DNA of 58,097 nucleotides, taken from the NCBI GenBank assembly GCA_964456505.1, contig CAYWAH010000003.1:1-58097 (forward strand), given 5' to 3'. A model generated the notes under the pieces. The model was not told the origin of the DNA, searched no databases, and was given only the letters and a program-made list of their open reading frames with translations. How positions within the stretch are numbered: the stretch's first letter is position 1; each line of letters opens with the position of its first letter. A program made the position numbers and the translations under genes. Shown here one piece after another: positions 18,314 through 41,735 of the stretch. The stretch comes from an uncultured Clostridium sp. (lineage in GTDB: Bacteria; Bacillota; Clostridia; TANB77; CAG-508).

Positions 18314-18387
18314 GCAGGTGTAGTTTAATGGTAGAACATGGCCTTCCCAAGGCTAGGGCGGGAGTCCGATTCTCCTCATCTGCTCCA
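18314..18387 (+). tRNA. tRNA-Gly (anticodon CCC)
   Basis: Cloverleaf: acceptor GCAGGTG/CATCTGC, anticodon arm TGGCC-TT CCC AA-GGCTA, T-arm GGGAG-TCCGATT-CTCCT, discriminator T, encoded CCA. Confidence 0.9.
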
Positions 18388-25387: not shown

Positions 25388-25807
25388 ATGGAAAACGAAG
25401 ACGAAGAAAAAGAATACATGATTGAAGATGCTGAAGCCAATTCCGATAATAAAGAATTTATGTTGCAAGCAATAAAAGACAAATCTCCTTGGGTTATAAG
25501 ATATGCAAGTGATAGATTACATGATGATAAAGATTTGATGATGACAGCAGTTAAGTGTGATGGACAAGAACTCTATTATGCAAGTAAAAGATTAAGAAAT
25601 GATAAAGAACTTGTAATGGAGGCAATTAAAAATAAGCCATTAATCGTTAAATATGCAAGCAAAAAACTTAGAGGAGATAAAGATATAGCCAAAACTGTTT
25701 TATTACAAAATAAGGATAAATTTAAAATTTATTTAACAGATGAAATTTTAAATGATCCAGAAATAAAAGAAATAATTGAAGGGGATAAGAAAGATGAAGA
25801 AAATTAG
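25388..25807 (+). CDS. DUF4116-repeat protein
   Basis: Repeats 'YASDRLHDDKDLMMTAVK', 'YASKRLRNDKELVMEAIK', 'YASKKLRGDKDIAKTVL'. Confidence 0.85.
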   Translation: MENEDEEKEYMIEDAEANSDNKEFMLQAIKDKSPWVIRYASDRLHDDKDLMMTAVKCDGQELYYASKRLRNDKELVMEAIKNKPLIVKYASKKLRGDKDIAKTVLLQNKDKFKIYLTDEILNDPEIKEIIEGDKKDEEN

Positions 25808-27842
25808 TTTGGTATTTGTAATAATAGCAACAATATTATTACTTCCTGTTGGAAATATTTTTGCAAGTGAAGAAAATGGTAAAACTAATAATGTGCAAAC
25901 TAATGAAATAATTACTAATTCTGAAAGCACAAAAGAAAACTATGATAAAAAGGATAACACTAATTCAAATGAAAATAATTTAATTAACAATATTGAAATA
26001 AAAGACAATGAAAAAAGTTCAAATACTATTACCTCTAACAAAGCTAAAAGAAATATCAGTATTAAAACAAATACATATACAGAAAATAATGTTAAAGAAG
26101 AAAACAAAAATAATAATTCAATTAAAAGCGGTGAAAATACAAATACTGTTGTTAACAATGTACCAAATAATTCTGGTAAAAAGCAGAATAATCAAACAAA
26201 AAGAAATGTACAAAGAAATGTAACTATACCAAATTCATTAAATTCTACAAATAGCACAAATAGTACAAATATGACTAATGGTATTAGTACAAAAACAACT
26301 ACTACTAATAAAAACAATACCACTACTGCAAAAAATACTACCACAACGAATACAACAAAAAGCACAAAAACAGAAGCGGTAGACAATACGCCAAATTCAA
26401 TTGGTTATATTGGTCACATCCAAAATATTGGTTGGCAATCACAAAAAAAGGATGGAGAAGTTGCTGGTACTTCCGGACGTGGATTAAGAATGGAGGCCAT
26501 TAAAATAACTCCAATTTCCAAAAGTGCTCAGTATAAAAAAGACAATATAAAAATATACTATCAAGCACATGTTCAAAATATAGGCTGGCAAAAATATGTT
26601 ACAGAAAATCAAATAGCAGGAACTACAGGCAGAGGATTAAGAATAGAAGCAATTAGAATAAAATTGTCTGATAACAATGATTATTCTATAAAATACAGAG
26701 TTCATGTACAAAATATTGGCTGGATGCCATGGAAATATGATGATGAAATTGCAGGAACAACAGGTCAAAGTTTAAGAATTGAAGCAATACAAATTCAAAT
26801 TGTAAAAAAAGTTCAAAAACAACCACATATTTATTATAAAGCACATGTACAAAACGTTGGATGGCAATACACTAGAACAGATGGAGGAACTGCTGGCACA
26901 ACAGGTAGATCACTTAGAGTTGAAGCATTAAATATTAATATCGAAAATATTGGAAATATAGGTATTAACTATCAGACTCATGTACAAAATATTGGTTGGA
27001 TGAAATGGGTTAGAGGCGGACAAAATTCTGGAACAACTGGTAGAGGACTAAGAGTAGAGGCAATTAGAATAAAACTAGATGATAATAACAAATATTCTGT
27101 ACAATACAGAGTCCATGTACAAAATGTTGGATGGATGCCTTGGAAAATTGATGGAGAGATGGCTGGCACAACAGGTCGTTCTTTAAGGATTGAAGCTATA
27201 CAAATTAGAATAATTTCAAAACAAAAAGCAAGACTAAATGGTGTTGATGTAAGTGAACATAATTCTAAACGTGGTAATAGTTTGAATTGGGATTCAATTA
27301 AAAACAGTACTGACTTTGCAATTCTAAGATTAGGCTGGGTTGGAAATGATGATACAGATTATACATATGTAGATTCAAAATTTAATGAATATTATAATGA
27401 ATGTAAAAAGAGAAATATTCCTATTGGTGTATATGTATTTAATTATTGCAGAGATGCAAATAAATCTATAAGAAATGCAAATTGGGTTGCATCGCAATTA
27501 AAAAATAAGTCAATAAATTATGGTGTTTACTTTGATATCGAAAATACCGTTTCAAATAATAAACAAATATATGATGGTGTATCAAATGAAACATTGACAG
27601 CTGTTGTTAAAAATTTCTGTGATACTTTAAAGAAACAAAATTACAATACTGGATTTTATACAAATAAAAAATTTGCGATAGAAAGATTAAATATGAATCA
27701 ATTAAGCAACCACGAATTTTGGATTGCACAATATAATGATACAGTTACATATACTGGAAAATATAAGATGTGGCAATATACTAGTCAAGGCACAATCCCT
27801 GGATGTGTAGGTAATTTGGATTTGAATTATAGATATAAATAA
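25794..27842 (+). CDS. Secreted cell-wall hydrolase: signal peptide, N/T-rich linker, six ChW repeats, GH25 lysozyme domain
   Basis: Signal 'MKKISLVFVIIATILLLPVGNIFA'; six 'H(V/I)QN(I/V)GW...GTTG..LR.EA' repeats; GH25 'GVDVSEHN', 'YFDIE', 'WIAQY', 'WQYTSQG..PG..GNLDLN'. Confidence 0.9.
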   Translation: MKKISLVFVIIATILLLPVGNIFASEENGKTNNVQTNEIITNSESTKENYDKKDNTNSNENNLINNIEIKDNEKSSNTITSNKAKRNISIKTNTYTENNVKEENKNNNSIKSGENTNTVVNNVPNNSGKKQNNQTKRNVQRNVTIPNSLNSTNSTNSTNMTNGISTKTTTTNKNNTTTAKNTTTTNTTKSTKTEAVDNTPNSIGYIGHIQNIGWQSQKKDGEVAGTSGRGLRMEAIKITPISKSAQYKKDNIKIYYQAHVQNIGWQKYVTENQIAGTTGRGLRIEAIRIKLSDNNDYSIKYRVHVQNIGWMPWKYDDEIAGTTGQSLRIEAIQIQIVKKVQKQPHIYYKAHVQNVGWQYTRTDGGTAGTTGRSLRVEALNINIENIGNIGINYQTHVQNIGWMKWVRGGQNSGTTGRGLRVEAIRIKLDDNNKYSVQYRVHVQNVGWMPWKIDGEMAGTTGRSLRIEAIQIRIISKQKARLNGVDVSEHNSKRGNSLNWDSIKNSTDFAILRLGWVGNDDTDYTYVDSKFNEYYNECKKRNIPIGVYVFNYCRDANKSIRNANWVASQLKNKSINYGVYFDIENTVSNNKQIYDGVSNETLTAVVKNFCDTLKKQNYNTGFYTNKKFAIERLNMNQLSNHEFWIAQYNDTVTYTGKYKMWQYTSQGTIPGCVGNLDLNYRYK

Positions 27843-30494: not shown

Positions 30495-30526
30495 AAAAAA
30501 GTTGGAAACTATTTTCCAACTTTTTT
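30495..30526. terminator. Bidirectional terminator
   Basis: AAAAAAGTTGGAAA-CTAT-TTTCCAACTTTTTT. Confidence 0.7.
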
Positions 30527-31398
30527 ATTTCTCATTCTTATGTTGCTTCAAAAGGCCAATCATAAGCCCAGTGTTTTCAAATATAAATGTTTGAATATAT
30601 GGACCACCTTGATTGTTGTAGACTGTATCCATTTCTGTTGTTGGAGAGCATGGATTACTTTTAATAAACTCTGTATAATCTTCATATTTTCTACCAGTGT
30701 AATCTGCTGGTTCAGCTCTCTTTTTTAACTTTTTCTTTTTGGTTATTTTTCTTGAAACTTTTCTTCTTAAGTCAATATTTGTAATTCCCCAATCTTTAAA
30801 AAGACCCATTTCAATGTATGTATAAATTGTTTTAGCACATTGTGTAATTTCCCTATGATTTTGTAAAATCGTGTAAATTGACTGTCCCTGTTTAATTAAA
30901 GGGCATATGATGTGTGCTAATTCATAAAGCTCAGTTGTGTTCAAATTTACACCAATTCTCGAATCTTTTAATGTGTATTCATATTTTTTCTGTGCAACCT
31001 TTGCATAATAAAAATATTTGGCTTTTTTACATGTTTTAATGCTTGGACAATTATTACATGCACCAACAAAACGATCTCTTCTAAAACATGGAATTTCTTC
31101 AAAGCTTTGACATTTACTAATACAAATTTTACATTCATTAAAATGTTTACACATCCATGGAGAGTCATCAATTTGTGAATATCTACGTTGCCTGTATTTT
31201 CTAATTTCTTTTCCAATTGCTGATTGACTTTTCTGTATTTCATTTGCTGTTTCATATTTTCTTTTTCCTTGGATAATATTGGTTTCAATATGCATTCTAT
31301 CTTCAAGTGAAAGATGTTTTCCATCATTTATACTCATAAAACCTTCTTTCCCAAGAAACACCTGTAATATAATTATACCACTTTCTTTTAATCTTACA
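30525..31398 (-). mobile_element. Truncated IS30-family element; transposase 31337-30525, C-terminal DDE region lost
   Basis: 'KHLSLEDRMHIE..G...A..I.KSQSAIGKEIRK' HTH, Cys-rich insert, 'LRRKV', 'EMDTV' (first catalytic D), then an abrupt end. Candidate left end TGTAAGATTAA at 31398 on the minus strand. Confidence 0.85.
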
Positions 31399-31560
31399 AT
31401 AAGCATATATGTAAGATTAAAATTTAATTGTTTTAAATCAAATAGAATTTACTTTTTCATTTGACTTTATCAAAAATTAACTACAATTTAACATTAAAAT
31501 ACTTTACTTTAGGGCAAAAACATGGTAAAATATAGGTGCTTGATAAAAAGGAGTGATTTT

Positions 31561-32322
31561 ATGGAAACAATTTTAAAAAAACCATCACTGTATAATTTAT
31601 TGTATAAAGATGTAACAGAAGATATTAATTTATACAAAGTATTATTAAAAAACTATAAAGAGATAGTTGAATATGGTGCAGGGACAGGTAGAATTACTAT
31701 TCCTATAGCTCAAGAAGAAAAAAAAGTCATTGCAATAGATAATGAATCTAATATGTTAGATGATTTAAAGTTTAAAGTAAAAGAAATGGGATTAGAAAAA
31801 AATATTATTCCAATAAAAGCTGATATGATAACTTATGTATGTGATAAAAAAGAAAAGTGTGTTATTATGCCACTCACAGTCTTTAATTATATATTGGATG
31901 ATAAAGAACAAGAAGAATGCTTGAAAAATATAGGTAAATACTTAGAGAGAGATGGCACTCTTATAATAGAATTATTAACTAAAAAAACCTTTTTGGACTT
32001 AACAGAAAACTCTGAAAGTAATTTAGAATATATAAAAAAAATAAAAACAAACGATGGGTATTATGAATACTGGAGAACAACAACATTTGATAAAAATACA
32101 AATCTTATTGAACAGAGAAGAGTTTTTAAACATTTTAACAAAGAAAATAAAAATGATAGTCAAGAAGAATTTATATGGAAAAACAAGTTTATAACATATA
32201 ATACTATTAAACAAGAACTTGAAAGAAATAACTTTGTAATTGAAACAGCTTATGGAAATTGCAAATTAGATCCATATAATGAAGATAGTGAAGATTTATT
32301 TATTAAGGCTAAAAAGGTCTAA
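31561..32322 (+). CDS. Class I SAM-dependent methyltransferase; first gene of the RiPP-like cluster
   Basis: Motif I 'IVEYGAGTGRITI', 'AIDNESNML', 'YLERDGTLIIEL'; RBS AAGGAG. Confidence 0.9.
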   Translation: METILKKPSLYNLLYKDVTEDINLYKVLLKNYKEIVEYGAGTGRITIPIAQEEKKVIAIDNESNMLDDLKFKVKEMGLEKNIIPIKADMITYVCDKKEKCVIMPLTVFNYILDDKEQEECLKNIGKYLERDGTLIIELLTKKTFLDLTENSESNLEYIKKIKTNDGYYEYWRTTTFDKNTNLIEQRRVFKHFNKENKNDSQEEFIWKNKFITYNTIKQELERNNFVIETAYGNCKLDPYNEDSEDLFIKAKKV

Positions 32323-32369: not shown

Positions 32370-32468
32370 ATGAAATCAATTAATGAAAAAGTTGTATCAG
32401 TAGAAAAAATTTCTTCTGTAAGTGCATCTTGCATGTATCATAGTGTTTCTTGCATGTACCATGCATAG
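32370..32468 (+). CDS. Putative RiPP precursor peptide, 32 aa: MKSINEKVVSVEKISSVSASCMYHSVSCMYHA
   Basis: Manual translation. Strong RBS AGGAGG 9 nt upstream; duplicated core SCMYH (TCTTGCATGTATCAT / TCTTGCATGTACCAT); immediately upstream of an rSAM/SPASM gene. Confidence 0.85.
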   Translation: MKSINEKVVSVEKISSVSASCMYHSVSCMYHA

Positions 32469-32475
32469 GTGAGAC

Positions 32476-32507
32476 AAAAGATGGGCAAGATAGTTTGTCC
32501 ATCTTTT
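32476..32507 (+). terminator. Stem-loop after the precursor gene (leaky terminator or mRNA stabiliser)
   Basis: AAAAGATGGGCAA-GATAGT-TTGTCCATCTTTT. Confidence 0.7.
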
Positions 32508-32537: not shown

Positions 32538-33884
32538 ATGAAATTAATAAATGAAATTCAATTTGTAAGAATAAATGATAATGAGATAGTAATGTTGAAT
32601 CTTATAAATGCTGCAGCAGATATTCTTGATAATGATACATATGAGAAATTGACTAATGATATAGATTCATTAGATGAGAGTATTATAAAAAAATTAAAAG
32701 AGAGAAAATATGTTTTTAATAGTGAAAATGAATACAATGAATATTTAAGTAAATTAAACACAGCAATTGACATTGCTCAAAAAAATAGTCCTCCTTGCTT
32801 TTTAGTCGTTCCAACATATAATTGTAATCTTCGATGTACTTATTGTTATGAGAGAACATATAGAATAGAGAATATAAAAGAAAACAATATGATACAAATA
32901 ATAGATAGACAATTTGAGGTAATAGATGATGTAGTTAATAAATACAGAAAAACAAATATTAAGGATTTTGATTCAAATTGTATCAGGATTACAATCATGG
33001 GAGGAGAACCTCTATTAAGGGTTAATAAAAAAATTATTGAATATATATTTAAAAAGGTTAAAGAAAGAAAATATACAATTGATATTGTAACTAATGGCGT
33101 AGATTTAGACTATTTTATTGACATATTAACTGATGATTGTGTAGATCATATTCAAATTACATTAGATGGATCAAAAAATATACATGATAAGAGAAGAATA
33201 TTTGCTGATGGAAGAGGTAGTTTTACTAAAATAATAAACAATATTGGATTAGCATTAAAAAATAATATTAAAATTTACTTGAGAGTAAATGTAGATAATG
33301 ATAATTTAAATGATTTACCAGAATTAGCAAAAATACTAGTACAAAGATTTAATAATGATGAAAATTTAAACCCATATATATATCTTTTGCAAGATGGAGG
33401 ATGTTCTGGAGATGCAAATGTTGTCAAAGAAGAAGTAGGAATTGATAAAGTATATAAATTAGAGCATGAATATCCACAGATGAAAATTTTTAGAAAAAAA
33501 TTTCATCCAGAAATGTATATTAATTCTATATTACAAAATACTGAATTTCAACCAGTACTAAGACATTGTGGAGCTGCAATTAATCAATATATTCTAGATT
33601 ATAAGGGCAATATATATAGATGCTGGCATGGAATAGGAAATGATGGTTACAGAACAGGAAGATATATTCCTACAATAGAAGAAGATAAAGATAAAAATGA
33701 AAAATGGGATAAGAGATCAGTATTAAATCTAAAAAAATGTAAAAATTGTAAATATAGGTATATATGTGGAACAGGATGTCCTGCAGCAACCCATAAAGGA
33801 GAAAAAGAATTTGACATTGAAAAAGAAAGCTGTGTTGATTATGAAGGATTGATTGATACTATAATCAAAGAAAAAATAAAATGA
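32538..33884 (+). CDS. Radical SAM/SPASM peptide maturase with probable N-terminal RRE-like domain
   Basis: 'PTYNCNLRCTYCYE' (CxxxCxxC), 'MGGEPLL', 'IQITLDG'; SPASM 'HCGA..YRCW', 'CKNCKYRYICGTGCP..SC'; ~85-aa N-terminal extension. Start at ATG 32538 after GAGGG. Confidence 0.93.
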   Translation: MKLINEIQFVRINDNEIVMLNLINAAADILDNDTYEKLTNDIDSLDESIIKKLKERKYVFNSENEYNEYLSKLNTAIDIAQKNSPPCFLVVPTYNCNLRCTYCYERTYRIENIKENNMIQIIDRQFEVIDDVVNKYRKTNIKDFDSNCIRITIMGGEPLLRVNKKIIEYIFKKVKERKYTIDIVTNGVDLDYFIDILTDDCVDHIQITLDGSKNIHDKRRIFADGRGSFTKIINNIGLALKNNIKIYLRVNVDNDNLNDLPELAKILVQRFNNDENLNPYIYLLQDGGCSGDANVVKEEVGIDKVYKLEHEYPQMKIFRKKFHPEMYINSILQNTEFQPVLRHCGAAINQYILDYKGNIYRCWHGIGNDGYRTGRYIPTIEEDKDKNEKWDKRSVLNLKKCKNCKYRYICGTGCPAATHKGEKEFDIEKESCVDYEGLIDTIIKEKIK

Positions 33885-33895
33885 GGTGATTGCAA

Positions 33896-35962
33896 TTGAA
33901 TGATAAAGAAATAATGACTTTAGGAGTATTTGCTCATGCAAATGCTGGCAAAACTACAATAACTGAAAATTTATTATATGACACACATGTAATTAATGAA
34001 ATAGGCAGAGTCGATTCTGGAAATACAGTAACTGATTCTATGAAAGTTGAAAAAGAGAGAGGAATTACAGTTAGATCTTCTTTAGTTTCTTTTGATGCTG
34101 AAGGAAAAAAAGTACAATTGATTGATACTCCTGGACATGTTGACTTTTCGGCAGAAGTTGAAAGAGCAATTAATGTGTTAGACGGTGCTGTACTTGCAAT
34201 TTCAGGTGTAGAGGGTGTTGAAGCACAGACATATACTATATGGAATGCGTTAAAAGAAAAAAAGGTTCCAACTATATTTTTTATAAATAAAATGGATAGA
34301 GTAGGTGCTGATTATGAAAGAACGATTAACGAGATAAAAGAAAAATTGCAAGTACCAATAGTATCATTGCAAAAGATAGAAACAAATGATGATAAAATAA
34401 TAATTAAGGATTTAACCAATGAACAAATTGTTGAGCAATTAACGTCAATAGATGATGATAATGTTGATGACTTAATAGAAAAATATTTAAATGATCCTAA
34501 TAGTTTATCTACTGAAGAAATAAACCAAAGAATAGAAGAATTATCAATAAGTGGAAAAATCAATATTGCTATTGGAGGAAGTGCCCTTAAAAGTATAGGT
34601 ACAAATGAATTAGTACATTATATCTCTAAATATTTACCAAGTACTCAGAGAAAAATAGAAGATGAATTCTCTGCATATGTTTATACTGTGAGAGTTGAAG
34701 ACAATGGACAAAAAAACTTATATGTAAAGGTGTTAACTGGTGAAATTTCACCAAGAGACACAATTAAAATGGATGATGAAGATAATGAAGCTAAAATAAA
34801 AAATACATTTATTTCAGATGGAAAAGAAATCGTAAACACAGATTACTTAAAAAGTGGCGATATCGGAATTATAACAGGAATAGATGCAAAATGTGGGCAG
34901 TTACTTGGTAGTCAAAAAGAAAAAAATAAATATGTAAGTTTCGTAAAGCCTTTAATAAATATGGAAATAGATGCTAAAGAAAAAAATCAAGTTATTAAGT
35001 TGGTTGAAGCATTAAAAGTTTTAAATGATGAAGATCCATATTTAAATGTTAGATATTCTAAGAATACTAGAAAAATATACATGAGTTTAATGGGAGAGGT
35101 TCAAGCACAAGTAATAGAAGAAATGTTAAAAGACAGATTTAGCATTGATGCTACCATTTCAAAACCAGTTATAATTCATAAAGAAAAGCCGATAAAAAAA
35201 GGAGTTGGTGAAGCTTACTATACAAGAGTTTCAGGATTAAAACTTGAAATAGAACCTTTACCAGAAGGCAGTGGATTCCACTATAAATCTGATTTATCTA
35301 CAGATTATTTGCATAAGAAATATCAAAGGCAAACAGAAAGATTAGTTAATAAATATTCTAAACAGGGGCTATATGGATGGGAAGTAACAGATGCAGAAGT
35401 AAGGCTAGTAGATGGAAGATTTGACTCAATGGGGTCTGAACCAAAACATTTTAATATTGCAGTACCGCTCGCATTTATGAGAGCATTAAAAGATTCTGGG
35501 GTGGAACTTCTTGAACCAATAAGCTCATACTCAATTATAGTTCCAAAAGAAAATTTGAATAATGTAATACAACTATTATCAAAAAAAGAGTCTAGCTTTG
35601 AAATAGATGAAACAATGGAACATAATGTGAAAATAACTGGAGAAGCACCATTGGATTTGATGTCTAATTTTCCAGTAGAATTAAACAAATTAACTTCAGG
35701 AAGAGGAATATATAGTCAAAATGTAGAAAAATATATGCATTCACGTGAACAAGATAAAGAGTGTCCATATATTGGACCAGATCCTAGGAATGAAGTTCCT
35801 TTCGTAATAAGTGATATGGGAGCAAGTTTGGATTATCTTGATCCAGTTAGAAGCAAGAAAAAGAAAGTAAGTAGAGCAAAATTTAAAAGAGAAAGAAAAG
35901 AAAAGCAAATCAGAGAAGAAAAAAAAAGAACAAGATTTGAAGGGATAGATAGAGATGATTAA
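33896..35962 (+). CDS. TetM/TetO-like (EF-G paralog) translational GTPase, putative ribosome-protection protein
   Basis: 'LGVFAHANAGKTTITENLLY', 'ERGITV', 'IDTPGHVDF', 'NKMDR', 'LNDEDP', 'ELLEP'; domain IV layout of the Tet RPP clade. TTG 33896 is best spaced from GAGGTG (ORF track starts at 33890). Confidence 0.85.
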   Translation: MNDKEIMTLGVFAHANAGKTTITENLLYDTHVINEIGRVDSGNTVTDSMKVEKERGITVRSSLVSFDAEGKKVQLIDTPGHVDFSAEVERAINVLDGAVLAISGVEGVEAQTYTIWNALKEKKVPTIFFINKMDRVGADYERTINEIKEKLQVPIVSLQKIETNDDKIIIKDLTNEQIVEQLTSIDDDNVDDLIEKYLNDPNSLSTEEINQRIEELSISGKINIAIGGSALKSIGTNELVHYISKYLPSTQRKIEDEFSAYVYTVRVEDNGQKNLYVKVLTGEISPRDTIKMDDEDNEAKIKNTFISDGKEIVNTDYLKSGDIGIITGIDAKCGQLLGSQKEKNKYVSFVKPLINMEIDAKEKNQVIKLVEALKVLNDEDPYLNVRYSKNTRKIYMSLMGEVQAQVIEEMLKDRFSIDATISKPVIIHKEKPIKKGVGEAYYTRVSGLKLEIEPLPEGSGFHYKSDLSTDYLHKKYQRQTERLVNKYSKQGLYGWEVTDAEVRLVDGRFDSMGSEPKHFNIAVPLAFMRALKDSGVELLEPISSYSIIVPKENLNNVIQLLSKKESSFEIDETMEHNVKITGEAPLDLMSNFPVELNKLTSGRGIYSQNVEKYMHSREQDKECPYIGPDPRNEVPFVISDMGASLDYLDPVRSKKKKVSRAKFKRERKEKQIREEKKRTRFEGIDRDD

Positions 35963-36962
35963 TTTTGAAAACACTAAACCATTAAGTTATGAAGAATTAT
36001 TAGAAATTGAAAATAAAATTTATGACAAAGAGTATATTGATGAAAAAACTCAAAAAACAGATATAAATTTGAATGAAGTATTATCCAGGAAAACGGAAAT
36101 ATTTAAAGATAAAACATATAATTTGCCACAAAATATTTTTTATATTGACAATTATAAAGGAAAAGTAGTAGTTGGAAGAAAAATTAGGTCAGTTTTAAGC
36201 TTTGAAAATAAAATAAATGCGATACACTGCAGTATGATAACGAGCTCAATGCTTTTAGGATTCTTAAAAAAAGGATTTCAAAGAGAAAAAGATGTAGAGG
36301 TAGAATATTATCCTCTAAAAAAATCTGAAAAAATAACAGCATTTGATGAAATAAAAAATAATAAAAATTCTGATATTTATTTTCCATTTAAATATTTAGA
36401 CTATTACACAAATGAAGAAGAAAAATCTCCAGATACTGGCTGGGATTTAAATCCTGCAAAAGTTATATATCTAGGATATGGAGAAGAACATATTAGAAAA
36501 TATACAATAAATTTTATAAAGCCATATATGAAAGATGGAACCATTATATTCGATCCAGCATGTTCTACAGGTCAATTTTTACATACTATAAAGAAATATT
36601 ATCCAAGTTGTAAAACGATAGGTCAAGATTTAAGTAAAGAAATGGTTGATTATGCTAAAGACTATGTCGATGAAATTTATTGTGGTGATTCAATAAATAC
36701 AAAAATAAAAGATGAAAGTGTAGATATTGAATTTTTTCGATTTTTGAATTCAGAAGTTGTTACAACTGAATATGCATATTTACTTTTTGAACATTTATAC
36801 AAAAAAGTAAAAAAAAATGGAATAATTGTAATATTTGGACATACCCCTGTTTTAATGAAGAAAGAATTTTTTATAAAACTTGGATTAAAAGTAGTACAAT
36901 CAATTGCATATGATAAAGATTATGATTGTATTTTTCAATATTATGTGTTAAGGAGAGTATAA
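35955..36962 (+). CDS. SAM-dependent transferase, methyltransferase fold; resembles 3-amino-3-carboxypropyl transferases of the isonocardicin synthase (Nat) type
   Basis: SAM motif 'FDPACSTGQFL', 'TIGQDLSKEMV', 'CGDSI', 'RFLNSEVVT', 'GHTPVL', 'FQYYVL'. The Nat resemblance is from recalled motifs, not a search. Confidence 0.7.
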   Translation: MINFENTKPLSYEELLEIENKIYDKEYIDEKTQKTDINLNEVLSRKTEIFKDKTYNLPQNIFYIDNYKGKVVVGRKIRSVLSFENKINAIHCSMITSSMLLGFLKKGFQREKDVEVEYYPLKKSEKITAFDEIKNNKNSDIYFPFKYLDYYTNEEEKSPDTGWDLNPAKVIYLGYGEEHIRKYTINFIKPYMKDGTIIFDPACSTGQFLHTIKKYYPSCKTIGQDLSKEMVDYAKDYVDEIYCGDSINTKIKDESVDIEFFRFLNSEVVTTEYAYLLFEHLYKKVKKNGIIVIFGHTPVLMKKEFFIKLGLKVVQSIAYDKDYDCIFQYYVLRRV

Positions 36963-36964
36963 TA

Positions 36965-38065
36965 ATGGAAGAAACATATAACCCTAATAAACTCATAATT
37001 GATAGAAGTGCAATTGAATTCAACATAGATAATATTAGAAAGCATCTTGGAAAAAATGTTGAATTGATGCCTATAGTTAAGGCTAATGCATATGGAGTAG
37101 GGATTAATAATATTTTGCCAATTTTAGTAAAAAAGAATATAAAAAGCATAGGTGTTGCAAATGTAAATGAAGGAATAATTGCAAGAAAAGAGTTCAAAGG
37201 ACAAATATTAGTTTTATTGCAACCACTAGTACAACAAATTCCGGAAATAATAAAAAATAAGCTAACAATAAATGCATGTGATTATAACTTTTTATATGTG
37301 TTAAATAAGAAATCTGAAACTAACAATATAGTTTCAGAGGTTCATATAGAAATTGATACAGGAATGGGACGAACAGGTATTAAAATTGAGGATATAGATG
37401 AGTTTTTAAACAAAATTAAGAATTTACAAAATATAAAAGTAGTTGGCATATCCTCTCATTTATCATCAAGTGGAAATAATGAAGAATATTCGTATTTTCA
37501 AATTGAAAGATTCAAGCAAGCAATAAGTATCTTTAAATTGAAAAAAATTCAATTAAAATATATTCATATTTATGCAAGTGGAGGAATATTAAAATATCCA
37601 ATTAAATTTTCAAATATGGCGAGAACTGGAATTATGATTTATGGATATTATCCAGGAAAAAATAAAAATATAAAGTTATTCCCTGCTCTAAAACTTATGA
37701 CAAAAATAAGCTATATCCATACTGTAAAACATGGCGAGTATATAGGATATAATTGCATTTATAAAGCAAAAGAAAACAGGAGAGTTGCAGTCATACCTAT
37801 TGGATTTGCGGATGCACTTATGGGATTAGAAAGCAATATTGGTTCTGTTATGGTAAAGAATAAAAAAGCAAAAATAATTGCAATTTGCATGGATACTATG
37901 ATAATAGATATTACAAATATAGATAATGCTAAAATAGATGATGATGTTGTTTTATGGGATAATGATGATATAACATTAGAACAATGGGGAGAGTGGACTA
38001 ATACAAGTAATTATGAAGTGTTATCAATATTATCTAATAGAATAGAAAGAAAAATGATAAATTAG
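36965..38065 (+). CDS. Alanine-racemase-family PLP enzyme (divergent; possible tailoring epimerase)
   Basis: 'VKANAYG' PLP lysine, 'HIEIDTGMGRTG', 'RTGIMIYG', 'GEYIGY' (catalytic Tyr position), 'ICMD', 'NYEVL..RIER'. Confidence 0.9.
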   Translation: MEETYNPNKLIIDRSAIEFNIDNIRKHLGKNVELMPIVKANAYGVGINNILPILVKKNIKSIGVANVNEGIIARKEFKGQILVLLQPLVQQIPEIIKNKLTINACDYNFLYVLNKKSETNNIVSEVHIEIDTGMGRTGIKIEDIDEFLNKIKNLQNIKVVGISSHLSSSGNNEEYSYFQIERFKQAISIFKLKKIQLKYIHIYASGGILKYPIKFSNMARTGIMIYGYYPGKNKNIKLFPALKLMTKISYIHTVKHGEYIGYNCIYKAKENRRVAVIPIGFADALMGLESNIGSVMVKNKKAKIIAICMDTMIIDITNIDNAKIDDDVVLWDNDDITLEQWGEWTNTSNYEVLSILSNRIERKMIN

Positions 38066-38134: not shown

Positions 38135-39796
38135 ATGTTAAGGGTTGAAAATATTTCAAAATCTTATAATGGAAAAGATATCTTAAATAATATAAGTTTC
38201 TCTTTGGATGAAGGAGAAAAAGCAGGAATTATTGGATTAAATGGAATTGGAAAAACAACATTATTAAGAATAATTGCAGACGAGGAGAAACCTGATTCAG
38301 GAAAAATAATTAAAGATAAAAATAGTCTTATAGGATACTTTAAACAAGAATTTAAAATATCTGAAGAAGATAGGAATATTGTGAGTTTTATAAAAAAATT
38401 TATAGGAATAGATGTTATTGAAATACATATGAACGAAGCTGAAAAAGCAATGGAAACGGATGAAAGTAAGATTCAAGAGTTTTGTGATTTACAGGAAGAA
38501 TATATGAGACTAGATGGCTATAATATTGATTATAAACTAGATCAAATATTATCTGGACTTGGATTAGATAATACAATTAAAGAAAAGAAAATATCTGAAC
38601 TTTCAGGAGGACAAAAAGAAAAAGTAATGCTTGCAGCTGTTCTTTTAAAAGGAACAGATTTACTTTTGTTGGATGAGCCAACAAATAATTTAGATATAAA
38701 ATCAATAAATTGGTTGGAAAAATATCTAAAAAACAATAATTCACCAATGCTTATTGTATCACATGATAGAAGATTTTTAGATGATGTAATTACCAAAGTT
38801 ATGGAAATAGATTTTTATACTAGAAATATGAAAGAATATCCTGGAAATTATAGTGAGTACAAAAAATTTAAGGAAGATGAACAAAATGCTCAACTTAGAA
38901 AATACAATGAACAACAAGAGAAGATTGGAGAACTAAGAAAAAGCATTACTCAAAAGAAGGAATGGGCACAAAAAGGAAATAAGCAAGGAGTATCTGATAA
39001 CGATAAGTATACGAGAGGATATATTAGGGATAGATCACAAGGGTTAGCAAGTAATGCAAAAAAAATTGAATCTCAAATTAGCCAAATGAATAAAATAGAA
39101 AGACCTAAAATAAAGAACAAATTACATATTGATATAAATGGAGATAAAACAAAAGGAAATAAAAATATTGACACAAAAGACCTTGTATCTGGATATGAGG
39201 ACGGATTTAAAAATGAGCCAGTTACTACACATATAAAATATGGTGATAGATTAGTTATCATAGGTGATAATGGTTCAGGAAAATCAACTTTTTTAAGAAC
39301 TTTGATTGGAAAACAAAAACCAATTTCTGGTGAACAAAGCATAGGCAGTGGAGTAAAAATAGGTTATTTAGCACAAGATACAAAAGAAAATACAAATGAA
39401 ACGATAGAAGATTACTTCAAGAAATCAATTAACTATGCTAATTTAGAAGATAAATCTTTAATTTATACGGTACTTAAACAATTCAATTTTGATTACGAAG
39501 AAAGAACAAAAAAATATTCTATGTTAAGTCCAGGAGAAAGGGCTAGATTAAAATTAGCAATTTTCTCGATGCAAGATATAAATACTCTTGTTTGCGATGA
39601 ACCAACGAATCATTTGGATATAGAAGCATTAGAAGCTATTGAAGAAGTACTTAAGGATTTCGACGGAACAGTTATAGCAATAAGTCATGATAGAGAATTT
39701 ATAAAAAATATAGACCCAACTAAAGTTTTAAAATTTTCAGATGGAAAAGTAGAAGTAATTTATCACAAAGATCAAGATGATAAAACAATACTATAA
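38135..39796 (+). CDS. ABC-F family ribosome-associated ATPase (ribosome-protection-like)
   Basis: Tandem NBDs ('GLNGIGKTT', 'LSGGQK', 'LLDEPTNNLD'; 'GDNGSGKST', 'LSPGER', 'CDEPTNHLD'), no TM segments, long inter-domain linker. Confidence 0.92.
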   Translation: MLRVENISKSYNGKDILNNISFSLDEGEKAGIIGLNGIGKTTLLRIIADEEKPDSGKIIKDKNSLIGYFKQEFKISEEDRNIVSFIKKFIGIDVIEIHMNEAEKAMETDESKIQEFCDLQEEYMRLDGYNIDYKLDQILSGLGLDNTIKEKKISELSGGQKEKVMLAAVLLKGTDLLLLDEPTNNLDIKSINWLEKYLKNNNSPMLIVSHDRRFLDDVITKVMEIDFYTRNMKEYPGNYSEYKKFKEDEQNAQLRKYNEQQEKIGELRKSITQKKEWAQKGNKQGVSDNDKYTRGYIRDRSQGLASNAKKIESQISQMNKIERPKIKNKLHIDINGDKTKGNKNIDTKDLVSGYEDGFKNEPVTTHIKYGDRLVIIGDNGSGKSTFLRTLIGKQKPISGEQSIGSGVKIGYLAQDTKENTNETIEDYFKKSINYANLEDKSLIYTVLKQFNFDYEERTKKYSMLSPGERARLKLAIFSMQDINTLVCDEPTNHLDIEALEAIEEVLKDFDGTVIAISHDREFIKNIDPTKVLKFSDGKVEVIYHKDQDDKTIL

Positions 39797-39840: not shown

Positions 39841-40482
39841 ATGGATAAGAAAAATTTAGAAAACATGAATGTTATTTTTGCAACCAGTAATCAAGGTAAA
39901 ATTAATCAGGTAAAAGAGATTTTTAAATTAAATAATGTGTTACTAAATATAAAATCAGAGAAGGAAATTAATTTTAATGAAGAGGTAGTAGAGGATGGTC
40001 AAACATTTGAAGAAAATTCTAAAATAAAAGCACTAACATTAAAACAATTTTGTGATAAAAATAAAATAAAGTATGATATGATTTTAGCAGATGATTCTGG
40101 AATATGCGTAGATGCTTTAAATGGTGAACCTGGAGTGTATTCAGCAAGATATGCTGGTAAAACTAAAACCAGTCAAGAAAAACTTGATTTTATTTTAAAT
40201 AAAATGAAAAAATACAAAACATCAGATGAAAGAAAAGCTCATTTTGTTTCTGTTATTACTGCGATATTTAAAGATGGTAAACTAATTCAAACTCGCGGAG
40301 AATGCAATGGACATTTGGCTGATCATTACAATGTTATTTGTAGATTAACATATAATCCTATATTTATTCCAGAAGGTTTTGACAAACCAATAGGAGAAAT
40401 GAGTGAAGAAGAATTTAAGAACGTTCACAATCATAGAGAAATTGCATTAAGAAAACTATTTGATTTACTATATAAAATGTAA
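39841..40482 (+). CDS. Non-canonical purine NTP pyrophosphatase family (RdgB/HAM1/ITPase), divergent
   Basis: 'FATSNQGK', 'EDGQTFEENSKIKA', 'ADDSG..VDALNGEPGVYSARYAG'; the usual FGYDP and SHR motifs read LTYNP and NHR. Confidence 0.88.
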   Translation: MDKKNLENMNVIFATSNQGKINQVKEIFKLNNVLLNIKSEKEINFNEEVVEDGQTFEENSKIKALTLKQFCDKNKIKYDMILADDSGICVDALNGEPGVYSARYAGKTKTSQEKLDFILNKMKKYKTSDERKAHFVSVITAIFKDGKLIQTRGECNGHLADHYNVICRLTYNPIFIPEGFDKPIGEMSEEEFKNVHNHREIALRKLFDLLYKM

Positions 40483-40752
40483 AAGATTGCAATAAAAAAG
40501 TAGATATAGATAAGTGTATATATAATAAAACTGATGAAATCTAAAAGAGAGGTAGAGAAGTAGGCAACTAGACAGCGATAGGTTTATAAAAAATAAAATG
40601 TATAATTGCGTGAAACCAAAGTATTCTCCGCGAATAAAGTTGCGTGAAATTAAACTTTTGCGCAACTTGAAGTAGGAGTTAATATAACTGACTGAAATGC
40701 TTGTAAAATCTATATTTTAAGGAATAAACCTATATTGTTTTTTTCTAAAAAC

Positions 40753-41172
40753 GCCTTAAAATCGATTCTCGTGCGTCGCTTTTTTGGCGTTATTACTGCA
40801 TTTTCAGCATTTAAGCTAAATCCAGTATTTTTAGAAAAATTTCATATACATACATATTAAATTAAATTATTTTAAATCAAATTTAGATTCCAATAAATAT
40901 TCTAACGATTAACTTTATAACTTTAATAATTAAATGGCTTAAAAACGATTCTGGTGCGTTCAAATTATAAAATTATTTTAGAACTCATTATATTAATTTG
41001 ATCATTATAATATTTATAAATCATCAATTATAAATTTCTAATTTAAAATTAGTTTTCTAAAATCTTAAGCTTATTAGTAAAAATCTTATAAATCCAATAA
41101 ATACGCAATTTACAGACAACAAGTTATATGTCTAATTTTTTAAAATGGCTTAAATGCGATTCTCGAAAGCCG
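40753..41172. repeat. Three dispersed ~22-bp direct repeats in a 1.2-kb non-coding tract
   Basis: GCCTTAAAATCGATTCTCGTGCG (40753), GGCTTAAAAACGATTCTGGTGCG (40936), GGCTTAAATGCGATTCTCG (41147). Confidence 0.6.
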
Positions 41173-41735
41173 TTTTTTAGGCATACTTATTGAATTTGTA
41201 GGTTTTCAAAAATTATATAACAAATGTTCGTCTTTGACATTTTCTTGTTTGGAAATTAAAAATTTTCTTTGCTGAACAAATTTTAATATATTTATAAATT
41301 ATTTTAGAAAAGAAAATTTTTTTAATCATATCATTTTATATTTAACTTCACTTTATATTTAGCTTAATTTAGTTTAATTTCATTTTATTTCACTTCATTT
41401 TATTCTACTTTTAATATATTTACAAATGATTTCTGCTGTTTCATTGTTTCCAATTTCTGAATCTATGCATAAATCATAATTCTCCTTACTTCCCTACTCC
41501 TGTTTTTCATATGAAAAATTATTTGTTAACCTAAAAACTATATTGTTTTCGCTAATACTCCTGCTTTTAGATAAAACATCATTTGTTAACACTTTAATTT
41601 TTTCGTTATATGATTTTCTAAGCATAAAGGCGCTTCTGCCATTTTGTTTTTTTCTTTCATTTTAAACCTCCTAAACGCAAAAAAATAGTATGTAAATATT
41701 TAAAATTTACAATCGCATTTTAGTTGCTATGTAAT

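Follow-up and report, generated by a model that had tools for sequence, protein, structure and literature searches.

A Nat-family transferase and a racemase relative with a remodelled substrate entryway are paired in a conserved RiPP cassette of gut Firmicutes

Introduction

Why would a relative of the nocardicin aminocarboxypropyl transferase be encoded directly upstream of an alanine racemase relative, in a locus that also holds a radical SAM maturase? The question arose from a 58,097-nt stretch of DNA from an uncultured Clostridium sp. (GCA_964456505.1, contig CAYWAH010000003.1, positions 1 to 58,097), hereafter the window. The original prediction, made from the sequence alone, was that a SAM enzyme of the isonocardicin synthase (Nat) family transfers the 3-amino-3-carboxypropyl (ACP) group to a core Tyr or His of a RiPP, and that the following Alr-fold enzyme, said to have altered pocket motifs, then epimerizes or decarboxylates it. 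The observation of the two genes and their family resemblance was confirmed. The interpretation was supported only in part, as the Nat family membership and the RiPP context held, whereas the motifs invoked for an altered pocket had to be replaced by others and decarboxylation is disfavoured.

Results

The Nat-like transferase

The open reading frame 35955–36962 (+ strand, 335 residues, ATG start) overlaps the upstream GTPase gene by 8 nt (ATGATTAA). Its motifs DPACSTGQFL, GQDL, CGDS, RFLNSEVVT, GHTPVL and FQYYVL align one-to-one with DAACSTGAFL, GQDL, CGDG, RHLNAFVVGT, GHTPVL and FQCYVL of Nat. A phmmer search of the PDB returned isonocardicin synthase (8zhu) with an E-value of 2.6e-38 over residues 56–334 of the query and 47–325 of the target, the next hit being CouO at 0.002. 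This is homology, not chance, with an identity of 31% over 281 residues. An AF2 model (pLDDT 87.9) was compared with known structures using Foldseek. The Nat structures 8zhv and 8zhu came first with E-values of about 1e-29 and TM-scores of 0.76/0.87, followed by hits at about 8e-9 with TM-scores of about 0.4. Grouping with rRNA or tRNA methyltransferases, which had been named beforehand as an outcome that would count against the prediction, was not observed, as these enzymes appear only as generic Rossmann matches with TM-scores of about 0.4. Motif I (DPACSTG) is invariant in 20 homologues. The family is rare, with 232 hits among 1.84e9 representative sequences.

Both characterized homologues, Nat and McalACT, O-aminocarboxypropylate phenols (PMC11869996). 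Other family members are fused to tyrosine-type biosynthetic modules, an A-T-R module in one retrieved locus (L024) and a CmlA-like hydroxylase in another (L025). It remains possible, although unlikely, that the 335-residue enzyme is an ordinary methyltransferase forming O-methyl-Tyr, N-methyl-His or S-methyl-Cys, which would leave no amino-acid head group for a PLP enzyme. Pfam detects only generic methyltransferase domains, NCBI names the homologues class I SAM-dependent methyltransferases, the identity to Nat is modest, only two family members have been characterized, and no sequence signature is known that separates ACP from methyl transfer. However, the match to Nat is full-length and includes the non-Rossmann N-terminal domain and the unusual motif I D[AP]ACSTG, the cassette already has a separate conventional methyltransferase, and methylation would leave the conserved coupling to a remodelled amino-acid racemase unexplained.

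The cassette and its precursor peptide

The two genes belong to a conserved cassette consisting of a precursor peptide, a radical SAM/SPASM maturase, a Tet(M)-like GTPase, the Nat-like enzyme and the Alr-like enzyme, with an S66 peptidase and/or a methyltransferase in other loci. The precursor gene (32370–32468, +) encodes MKSINEKVVSVEKISSVSASCMYHSVSCMYHA, 32 residues with two tandem core units SCMYH, and is preceded by AGGAGG 8 nt upstream. Twelve distinct homologous small open reading frames were found in cassette loci, with a leader MKS[ILV]N..VV.. and a core C-x-Y-H plus one residue, in which Cys, Tyr and His are invariant. No NCBIfam model exists for this peptide. A scan for terminator-like structures found a hairpin with a 14-bp stem and a 4-nt loop directly after the precursor stop codon (32476–32507, +), which could be an attenuating terminator that sets the precursor-to-enzyme ratio, a function that is only inferred.

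The maturase (32538–33884, +) has a Radical_SAM domain (Pfam, E-value 1.5e-16) and a SPASM domain (TIGR04085, 52.9 against a cutoff of 27). The nearest curated families are Cys-rich-peptide thioether maturases (CefB, TIGR04463, PapB), all below their cutoffs, and the best score, for CefB, is 142 bits against 600, far below. The gene is present in every cassette locus that extends far enough upstream.

The GTPase (33890–35962, +; the start codon, TTG 33890, is uncertain) is an EF-G/Tet(M)-like translational GTPase and an invariant cassette member. It matches TetM (3j9y, 352 bits) and TetO over the full length but scores 539 with the NCBIfam model tet_protect, below the cutoff of 775. It has the same five-domain organization and DTPGH is intact. 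The domain-IV loop is GRFDSMGSEPKHF where TetM has GLYYSPVSTPADF; the loop that displaces tetracycline (YSPVS) is replaced by a different, cassette-invariant loop (FDSMGS[DE]P). This loop and a basic C-terminal tail are conserved in 14 cassettes.

A class I SAM methyltransferase gene (31561–32322, +) is considered an accessory member. Its likely start is ATG 31561 (METILKK) after an AGGAG site, although the longest reading frame starts at 31522. It matches Pfam Methyltransf_25/31/11, and its best NCBIfam match is daptide_MTase with 72.6 bits, far below the cutoff of 175. Homologues lie upstream in L001, the cassette locus closest to that of the window, and downstream of the S66 gene in the cassette loci L006, L008, L010, L014, L057 and L063. 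An ABC-F ribosomal-protection-like ATPase (38135–39796, +; ribo_prot_ABC_F 436, cutoff 380) follows the Alr-like gene after a 69-nt spacer. Its membership is uncertain, as it is absent from all other cassette loci, including L001. No exporter is encoded in the window.

Coupling of the two genes

The Alr-like gene (36965–38065, +, 366 residues) starts 2 nt after the Nat-like gene, at an ATG preceded by AAGGAG within the 3' end of the latter. A longer frame from TTG 36926 is also open, but homologues start at the ATG. In 16 of 18 cassette loci retrieved through the Nat-like protein, the Alr gene directly follows, with a spacing mostly between a 4-nt overlap and a 2-nt gap, L006 being the exception with 180 nt. 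Two cassettes (L004 and L015) lack Alr. None of about 36 loci of remote Nat homologues has an Alr within 10 kb. The pairing is conserved and translationally coupled.

The remodelled entryway

The 366-residue protein contains both Pfam Alr domains (E-values 4e-52 and 6e-32) and passes TIGR00492 with 297 bits (cutoff 168). The PLP Lys (K39) and the catalytic Tyr (Y262, equivalent to Tyr265') are kept, and the equivalents of K39, Y43, R136, H166, S204, R219, Y265', M312' and D313' are invariant. The sequences AYGVG, SHLSSS and YASGG, initially taken as evidence of an altered pocket, are present but do not discriminate, since AYG[V/T], SHLSS and xSGG, as well as Lys129→Glu, are shared with stand-alone Alrs of the same clade lying next to MurI, DAP dehydrogenase or YkuD.

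The discriminating changes are in the entryway residues Asp171, Tyr284', Arg290', Arg309' and Tyr354. The protein of the window has Asp171→Gly, Tyr284'→Phe, Arg290'→Gly, a deletion of Arg309', and Lys129→Glu. In its clade (A), Asp171 is lost, Tyr284' is Phe, Arg290' is Gly or Thr, and Arg309' is deleted. Of the 120 nearest relatives, 70 carry the remodelled entryway. All 21 of these with an assigned context (17 by contig-length matching to Nat hits, 4 by look-up) are in a cassette, and all 5 canonical-entryway relatives with known context are outside. These include two correct blind predictions. The counts are phylogenetically non-independent, the NJ tree has no support values, and one stand-alone Alr (P0145) has an intermediate entryway. 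A second, independent Alr lineage (clade B, 28–30% identity, Lys129 and AYGHG kept) occupies the same position in other cassettes, with Arg290'→Ser/Thr and Tyr354→Cys/Thr in 9 of 9 members, whereas its next 112 relatives have R290 in 106 and Y354 in 109. All catalytic residues are retained in both clades.

The entryway residues are highly conserved in alanine racemases, where the Tyr265'/Tyr354 gate sets alanine specificity (PMC3245724). Tyr354 is Thr or Ala in lysine and broad-spectrum racemases (PMC3485190). These enzymes (Lyr, Bsr/Bar) are Alr-fold proteins that accept long side chains after changes at the entryway, which clade B matches at Tyr354. They keep, however, the Arg290'/Arg(Lys)309' and Asp/Glu charge array (PMC3485190) that the cassette enzymes lose, and they are periplasmic and act on free amino acids.

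The Alr-like gene could instead encode a working racemase of alanine or another small amino acid that merely travels with the cassette, supplying D-Ala or serving cell-wall metabolism together with the S66 LD-carboxypeptidase-like gene. This is judged unlikely. It is favoured by the TIGR00492 score, by the intact catalytic and carboxylate-binding residues, by the cell-wall context of the closest non-cassette relatives (MurI, DAPDH, YkuD, BacA), by the S66 peptidase that often follows and the PBP5-type carboxypeptidase that follows in the locus L058. Clade A also keeps Tyr354 and the Tyr284'→Phe change is conservative, so that the gate is not obviously open. On the other hand, near-universal residues (Asp171, Arg290', Arg309') are lost specifically in cassette copies, a second lineage has independently lost entryway residues including the Tyr354 gate, the gene is tightly coupled to the Nat-like gene in both lineages, and the cassettes of the window and L001 have no S66 gene.

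K39, Y265', H166 and R219 are invariant in 120 of 120 relatives, which fits racemization rather than other PLP chemistry. Microcin C offers a precedent for ACP transfer followed by PLP-dependent decarboxylation (MccD and the N-terminal domain of MccE), fold-type III includes decarboxylases, and a faint PF02784 hit was obtained (E-value 0.003). This hit scores 17 bits against a cutoff of 23.4, and the protein has the racemase-specific C-terminal domain, both racemase bases and Arg219. Decarboxylation of the head group to an aminopropyl group, its elimination, or its transfer to an acceptor other than Tyr, is considered unlikely. His is as invariant as Tyr in the core, and the acceptor could also be Cys, an amine or a cross-linked intermediate, but both characterized Nat-family enzymes use a phenol oxygen.

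Discussion

It is proposed, tentatively, that the two genes encode consecutive tailoring enzymes of a radical SAM RiPP pathway of "CxYH peptides". The analysis establishes the Nat family membership and supports the conserved and coupled gene pair, the precursor family and the cassette-specific entryway; that the transferred group is ACP rather than methyl, that Tyr is the acceptor and that the PLP enzyme epimerizes it are all inferred. The precursor would be bound through its leader by the maturase, which, from family resemblance, would cross-link the core, probably through the invariant Cys. The Nat-family enzyme would use SAM as an alkyl donor, not a methyl donor, and transfer the ACP group to a core nucleophile, most likely the Tyr phenol, yielding an O-homoseryl-Tyr ether (+101.05 Da per Tyr) and MTA. 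This would create the only free α-amino-acid unit on the peptide. The Alr-derived enzyme, with its complete two-base machinery but without the conserved, narrow, charged entry funnel of true alanine racemases, would take in this tethered amino acid and invert Cα from L to D, as a non-homologous analogue of NocJ. The methyltransferase and, in other loci, the S66 peptidase may finish the product.

The proposed logic is the same as that of nocardicin A biosynthesis, in which Nat forms an ACP ether on a phenol and NocJ inverts the homoseryl Cα. The transferases are homologous, with the same two-domain fold, but the substrate here would be a ribosomal, radical SAM-modified peptide instead of an NRPS tripeptide β-lactam, and the PLP partner derives from alanine racemase, a family to which NocJ is not known to belong. 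McalACT of the molluscan bursatellin/oxazinin pathway acts on a tyrosine-derived phenol (PMC11869996), a pathway mirrored by the bacterial A-T-R and Nat-like fusion of L024, but its substrate is a free N-acyl tyrosinol, with no PLP partner and no RiPP context. Microcin C is likewise a RiPP tailored by SAM-derived ACP transfer and a PLP enzyme, and an S66 (MccF-family) peptidase is found in most cassettes. No homology of the transferase to MccD was established, MccE decarboxylates, and the acceptor in microcin C is a phosphoramidate rather than a side chain. Ranthipeptides and sactipeptides (PapB, CefB, SCIFF maturases) share the maturase domain make-up, a short Cys-containing core and a precursor gene directly upstream. 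No member is known to carry an ACP transferase, an Alr homologue or a Tet-like GTPase, and the C-x-Y-H core is not known to have been described. No description of the cassette was found.

The GTPase and the Nat-like enzyme might alternatively act on the translation apparatus itself and not on the peptide, as a resistance or regulatory module that modifies the ribosome or a factor. ACP modifications exist on rRNA and tRNA near the decoding site, diphthamide is an ACP-derived modification of EF-2, and the GTPase gene is next to that of the transferase. This is very unlikely, as TYW2, Tsr3 and the Dph enzymes were absent from the PDB hits of the Nat-like protein at E ≤ 1, family members elsewhere are fused to small-molecule biosynthetic domains, and a precursor and a maturase are conserved in the cassette. 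The GTPase is rather a candidate self-protection factor, for which Otr(A) is a precedent in producers. In this view it protects the ribosome of the producing Firmicutes, which would imply that the peptide product of the cassette targets translation.

The Nat-like protein

The original prediction that the gene of a Nat-like protein is followed after 2 bp by the gene of an alanine racemase (Alr)-fold enzyme is correct. The open reading frames at 35955-36962 (+, 335 aa) and 36965-38065 (+, 366 aa) are separated by 2 nt, and an AAGGAG ribosome-binding site for the second lies inside the end of the first. The upstream gene, which encodes a GTPase, overlaps the first by 8 nt, so that the three genes are arranged as if translationally coupled. 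All the motifs that had suggested kinship with isonocardicin synthase (Nat) are present in the 335-aa protein and align with those of Nat: DPACSTGQFL with DAACSTGAFL, GQDL with GQDL, CGDS with CGDG, RFLNSEVVT with RHLNAFVVGT, GHTPVL with GHTPVL, and FQYYVL with FQCYVL.

Generic domain libraries recognize only a class I methyltransferase domain in this protein. In contrast, a phmmer search of the PDB sequences retrieved isonocardicin synthase (8zhu, 8zhv, 9upq) with an E-value of 2.6e-38 over residues 56-334 of the query and 47-325 of the chain, that is nearly the whole length and including the N-terminal non-Rossmann domain. The next hit has an E-value of 0.002. Identity to Nat is 31% over 281 aa. 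An AlphaFold2 model built on 20 homologues (pLDDT 87.9) was compared to solved structures with Foldseek. The four Nat chains (8zhv/8zhu) occupy ranks 1 to 4 with E-values of about 1e-29 and TM-scores of 0.76/0.87, whereas the other methyltransferases, including RNA methyltransferases, appear from rank 5 onward with E-values of 8e-9 or greater and TM-scores of 0.41 at most. The family motifs D[AP]ACSTG (in place of GxGxG), GQDLS, R[FH]LN, GHTPVL, and FQxYVL are all found, and residues D200-G206, G223, D225-S227, and R262-N265 are invariant in 20 homologues. Other families of 3-amino-3-carboxypropyl (ACP) transferases were also considered, but neither TYW2, Tsr3, nor CntL/NAS was found among the PDB sequence hits with E ≤ 1 or in the top 50 fold matches.

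The Nat family is small, with 232 proteins at E ≤ 1e-3 among 1.84 billion representative proteins. Only two members have been characterized, Nat and the molluscan McalACT, and both transfer the ACP group of SAM to a phenolic oxygen (PMC11869996). Other members found here are fused to tyrosine-type biosynthetic modules. In the retrieved locus L024 (7367-10981), from an uncultured bacterium, a Nat-like domain is fused to an adenylation-thiolation (PCP)-reductase module, which is the bacterial counterpart of the molluscan bursatellin logic. In locus L025 (4789-7389), from Xenorhabdus khoisanae, it is fused to a CmlA-like diiron β-hydroxylase. Membership of the Nat family is therefore established, but the transfer of ACP rather than methyl is inferred, as is the phenolic acceptor. 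With 31% identity to Nat, it is still possible, although unlikely, that the enzyme methylates its substrate.

A conserved cassette

Upstream of these genes and on the same strand are found a methyltransferase gene (31561-32322), a small open reading frame (32370-32468) encoding the peptide MKSINEKVVSVEKISSVSASCMYHSVSCMYHA, a radical SAM (rSAM)/SPASM maturase gene (32538-33884), and a Tet(M)-like GTPase gene (33890-35962). They are followed by the Nat-like (35955-36962) and Alr-like (36965-38065) genes, an ABC-F gene (38135-39796), and RdgB (39841-40482). The small open reading frame has a strong ribosome-binding site and is followed at once by a hairpin with a 14-bp stem, the two together spanning 32370-32507. 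A promoter scan was uninformative, with 74 hits found against 81 expected. A scan for Rfam families and tRNAs revealed only a tRNA-Gly(CCC) (18314-18387, +).

To examine the conservation of this arrangement, 52 genome loci were fetched through the Nat-like protein, together with loci reached through exact-protein look-ups, and searched with the proteins of the window. The best locus from the scan of GTDB species-representative genome contigs has a Nat-like protein 58% identical to that of the window, and the closest locus overall (L001, 73%) came from a protein look-up. All the loci with a Nat-like protein at least 49% identical to that of the window share the order precursor, rSAM, GTPase, Nat-like, wherever the contig reaches. 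They belong to gut and other MAGs of Bacilli, Erysipelotrichaceae, 'Tenericutes', and Lachnospiraceae, among others. In 16 of these 18 loci, an Alr gene directly follows the Nat-like gene, mostly with a spacing from a 4-nt overlap to a 2-nt gap, locus L006 being the exception with 180 nt. A gene for an S66 peptidase usually comes next, and often the methyltransferase gene. The two loci without Alr are L004, which has instead the S66 gene followed by an MFS transporter and an ATP-grasp ligase, and L015, which has only the four core genes. None of about 36 loci with remote Nat homologues (Streptomyces, Pseudomonas, Rickettsiella, and others) has any of these partners.

The precursor is real. Twelve distinct versions share the leader MKS[ILV]N..VV.. 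and a core C-x-Y-H followed by exactly one residue, with invariant Cys, Tyr, and His. The core is tandemly duplicated in three of them. That of the window has two tandem SCMYH units and that of L006 is also tandem (CHYHSCHYHN), whereas most other loci have a single CHYH unit plus one C-terminal residue. The invariance of Tyr in all 12 cores is consistent with a phenolic acceptor. No model of the precursor was found in NCBIfam.

The maturase contains a radical SAM core (PF04055, E 1.5e-16) and a SPASM domain (TIGR04085, 52.9 against a cutoff of 27). Its nearest families are thioether-forming maturases, although the cutoff of no named subfamily is reached.

A cassette variant is found in loci L016, L019, and L065, with the order M29 peptidase, rSAM, amidohydrolase, GTPase, Nat, Alr. 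In L019 (4700-13146) and L065 (1518-9095), an M29 aminopeptidase gene lies upstream and an Amidohydro_2 gene is inserted between those of the rSAM enzyme and the GTPase. In L019, the precursor (MKSINTNVVATVVATNMACHYHM) is encoded downstream of the enzymes. A different cluster with a rSAM enzyme and a Nat-like protein (44% identity) occurs in a 'Mycoplasma sp.' MAG (L020, 8461-13317). It has a small open reading frame ending in SVCCQNQY between the two genes, a second rSAM/SPASM protein, a PqqD-like protein, a GNAT, and an ABC exporter, but neither GTPase nor Alr. It may be a second type of RiPP that uses a Nat-family enzyme.

The flanking genes differ between loci and transposase fragments abut the cassette. 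In the window, an IS30-like transposase remnant (30525-31406, -; HTH_38 and a weak IS30 match) lies directly upstream, and an rve integrase fragment lies upstream of the cassette in locus L057. This suggests that the cassette is mobile. The ABC-F and RdgB genes were considered as cassette members, but both are absent from the cassette in every other locus and are treated as neighbours. In L001, the cassette is followed by GlyRS. The ABC-F protein exceeds the NCBIfam cutoff for ribosomal protection-like ABC-F proteins (436 against 380). No S66 peptidase, second Alr, or second EF-G-like gene was found elsewhere in the window. Beyond RdgB, gene orientation switches from + to - and the GC skew changes sign across a 1.25-kb stretch without a long open reading frame (about 40500-41700), the cumulative skew peaking near 40 kb, in a convergent, terminus-like arrangement. 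The window also encodes a 1894-aa protein with LRR, DUF4874, and DUF4832 domains (46305-51989, -) and a ChW-repeat GH25 muramidase (25776-27842, +). With the tRNA-Gly(CCC) and a GC content of about 27%, these features fit a cell-walled, low-GC Firmicute chromosome.

The Alr-like protein

The 366-aa protein is a bona fide member of the Alr family. It consists of the N-terminal barrel (PF01168, E 4e-52) and the C-terminal β domain (PF00842, E 6e-32), and scores 297 with TIGR00492, above the cutoff of 168. The best PDB match is Alr 4y2w (E 5e-51). Residues are numbered here after the Geobacillus stearothermophilus enzyme (PDB 1l6f), and counts are based on alignments. The equivalents of the catalytic and cofactor-binding residues Lys39, Tyr43, Arg136, His166, Ser204, Arg219, Tyr265', Met312', and Asp313' are present. 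All are invariant in the 120 nearest relatives, except Tyr43, which is present in 119. In contrast, the match to PF02784, one of the families (PF02784/PF00278) of MccE-type and Orn-DAP-Arg PLP decarboxylases, reaches only 17.4 bits over 63 residues, below the cutoff of 23.4.

The motifs AYGVG, SHLSSS, and YASGG, originally taken as signs of an altered pocket, are traits of a wider clade. The carbamylatable Lys129 is replaced by Glu, but this is also the case in 117 of the 120 relatives, stand-alone proteins included. Lys129→Glu, AYG[V/T], GYN, and CMD[T/N] were at first considered specific to the cassette. This was rejected, as the same residues were found in stand-alone Alrs in cell-wall contexts, next to MurI, RimK, and BacA (L059) or DAP dehydrogenase and YkuD (L060), and in other housekeeping contexts (L056, L061). 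These features therefore say nothing about the pathway.

The groups are separated by the substrate entryway. In alanine racemases, this funnel is highly conserved, with an inner layer consisting of Ala172, Tyr265', Tyr284', and Tyr354, and a middle layer consisting of Asp171, Arg290', Arg309', and Ile352. The gate between Tyr265' and Tyr354 is about 2.7 Å wide and enforces the specificity for alanine (PMC3245724, PMC3485190). The window protein lacks this constricted entryway, as it has Gly171, Phe284, Gly290, and Ser352, with residue 309 deleted, and keeps only Tyr354 of the six residues Tyr284', Tyr354, Asp171, Arg290', Arg309', and Ile352. Among the 120 nearest relatives, 70 have lost Asp171 and Arg309' and display Tyr284'→Phe and Arg290'→Gly/Thr (clade A), 46 have the canonical set, and 4 are intermediate. 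All 21 remodelled proteins with an assigned context, 17 by contig-length matching to the Nat hits and 4 by look-up, lie in a cassette, whereas all 5 canonical proteins with a known context lie outside, although these counts are not phylogenetically independent. They include two predictions made from the signature prior to the look-up, with the relative P0193 in a cassette and the relative P0203 outside. One intermediate protein is also outside.

A second Alr lineage (clade B) occupies the same position after Nat in the cassette variant of L016, L019, and L065. It is 28-30% identical to the window protein and keeps Lys129 and AYGHG. All nine members have Arg290'→Ser/Thr, Ile352→Tyr, and Tyr354→Cys/Thr, whereas their next 112 relatives keep Arg290 in 106 cases and Tyr354 in 109. 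The substitution of Tyr354 by Thr or Ala allows lysine and broad-spectrum racemases to accept long side chains (PMC3485190). A neighbour-joining tree of the Alrs suggests several cassette clades but has no support values, and only the split between clades A and B is relied upon, given their low identity and different signatures. Two lineages in the same operon position thus both dismantle the funnel while keeping the catalytic machinery. This is the strongest evidence that the enzyme has a new and bulkier substrate, although clade A retains Tyr354. That the protein is an ordinary racemase hitch-hiking with an S66 cell-wall enzyme is considered unlikely. As it lacks one defining feature of alanine racemases, the conserved entryway, it should not be filed as one without an assay.

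The Tet(M)-like GTPase

The GTPase (33890-35962) is an invariant member of the cassette. It aligns end to end with Tet(M) (352 bits) and shares the overall architecture of tetracycline ribosomal protection proteins, but scores 539 with the curated model NF012153 (tet_protect), below the cutoff of 775. The domain-IV loop that dislodges tetracycline, YYSPVSTP in Tet(M), is FDSMGSEP in the window protein. This loop is invariant across cassettes with the consensus [DG]G.FDSMGS[DE]P.HFNI, compared to YYSPVSTPADF in Tet(M), and a basic C-terminal tail (KKKK.SR.KF.R) is also conserved. It is presumed that the GTPase protects the producer against a ribosome-binding product. The adjacent ABC-F gene in the window fits this reading but is not conserved.

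Proposed pathway

The analysis establishes the set of genes with its conservation and coupling, the affiliation of the transferase to the Nat family, the intact racemase core with a remodelled entrance, and the invariant Cys, Tyr, and His of the precursor core. The reactions themselves are inferred from sequence alone. The rSAM/SPASM enzyme would cross-link the core through Cys, by resemblance to its nearest families. The Nat-like enzyme would alkylate the Tyr phenol with the ACP group of SAM (+101.05 Da) and release MTA. This would create the only free α-amino-acid unit on a ribosomal peptide, which is exactly what an Alr-type PLP enzyme needs for aldimine formation, and the remodelled racemase would then invert that centre. 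Racemization is favoured over decarboxylation, as both catalytic bases and Arg219 are invariant, the racemase C-terminal domain is present, and the match to the decarboxylase family is below threshold. The original interpretation, that a core Tyr or His is modified with ACP and then epimerized or decarboxylated, is partly supported. The methyltransferase remotely resembles daptide methyltransferases and is possibly an amine N-methylase. It is unlikely that ACP is transferred to another atom or processed differently, and very unlikely that the module acts on the translation apparatus. The absence of Alr from two cassettes is a weakness of the proposed pathway.

Transfer followed by epimerization would work like the pair Nat/NocJ in nocardicin biosynthesis, here on a RiPP and with an Alr-type PLP scaffold. 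NocJ is not known to be an Alr-family protein. The resemblance to microcin C tailoring, which involves ACP transfer, then a PLP enzyme, with an S66 peptidase, is only in outline. Literature searches on isonocardicin synthase, ACP in RiPPs, rSAM enzymes with ribosomal protection and alanine racemase, and NocJ found no description of this cassette, and no curated model was found for it. It is regarded as a rSAM RiPP pathway, a type already known, with an unprecedented set of tailoring and immunity proteins.

A further reading is not excluded but remains doubtful. The cassette would define a previously undescribed class of RiPPs of gut Firmicutes, in which a radical SAM cross-linked C-x-Y-H core carries an O-(3-amino-3-carboxypropyl)tyrosine with a stereocentre inverted by an alanine racemase repurposed to act on a peptide-tethered amino acid, a reaction type not known for this enzyme family. 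The product would act on the ribosome near the site guarded by Tet(M)-type factors. The GTPase would then represent a natural, non-tetracycline role of ribosomal protection proteins and a possible evolutionary source of them.

ACP transferases are rare and no member of the Nat family is known in a radical SAM RiPP. If the proposed pathway holds, an O-homoseryl-Tyr ether, giving a peptide a second free amino-acid head, would be a new post-translational modification in the RiPP repertoire. The racemase would be the first enzyme of the Alr family acting on a macromolecule-tethered substrate, with a readable signature (loss of Asp171, Arg290', and Arg309', or of the Tyr354 gate) that could be used for genome mining. 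There would also be a testable link between the Tet(M)-like 'resistance' genes common in gut metagenomes and self-protection against an endogenous peptide. This last point also matters for annotation, as these GTPases and racemases are currently named tetracycline-resistance-like proteins and 'alanine racemase', and such GTPase genes in gut metagenomes could be mistaken for tetracycline-resistance determinants.
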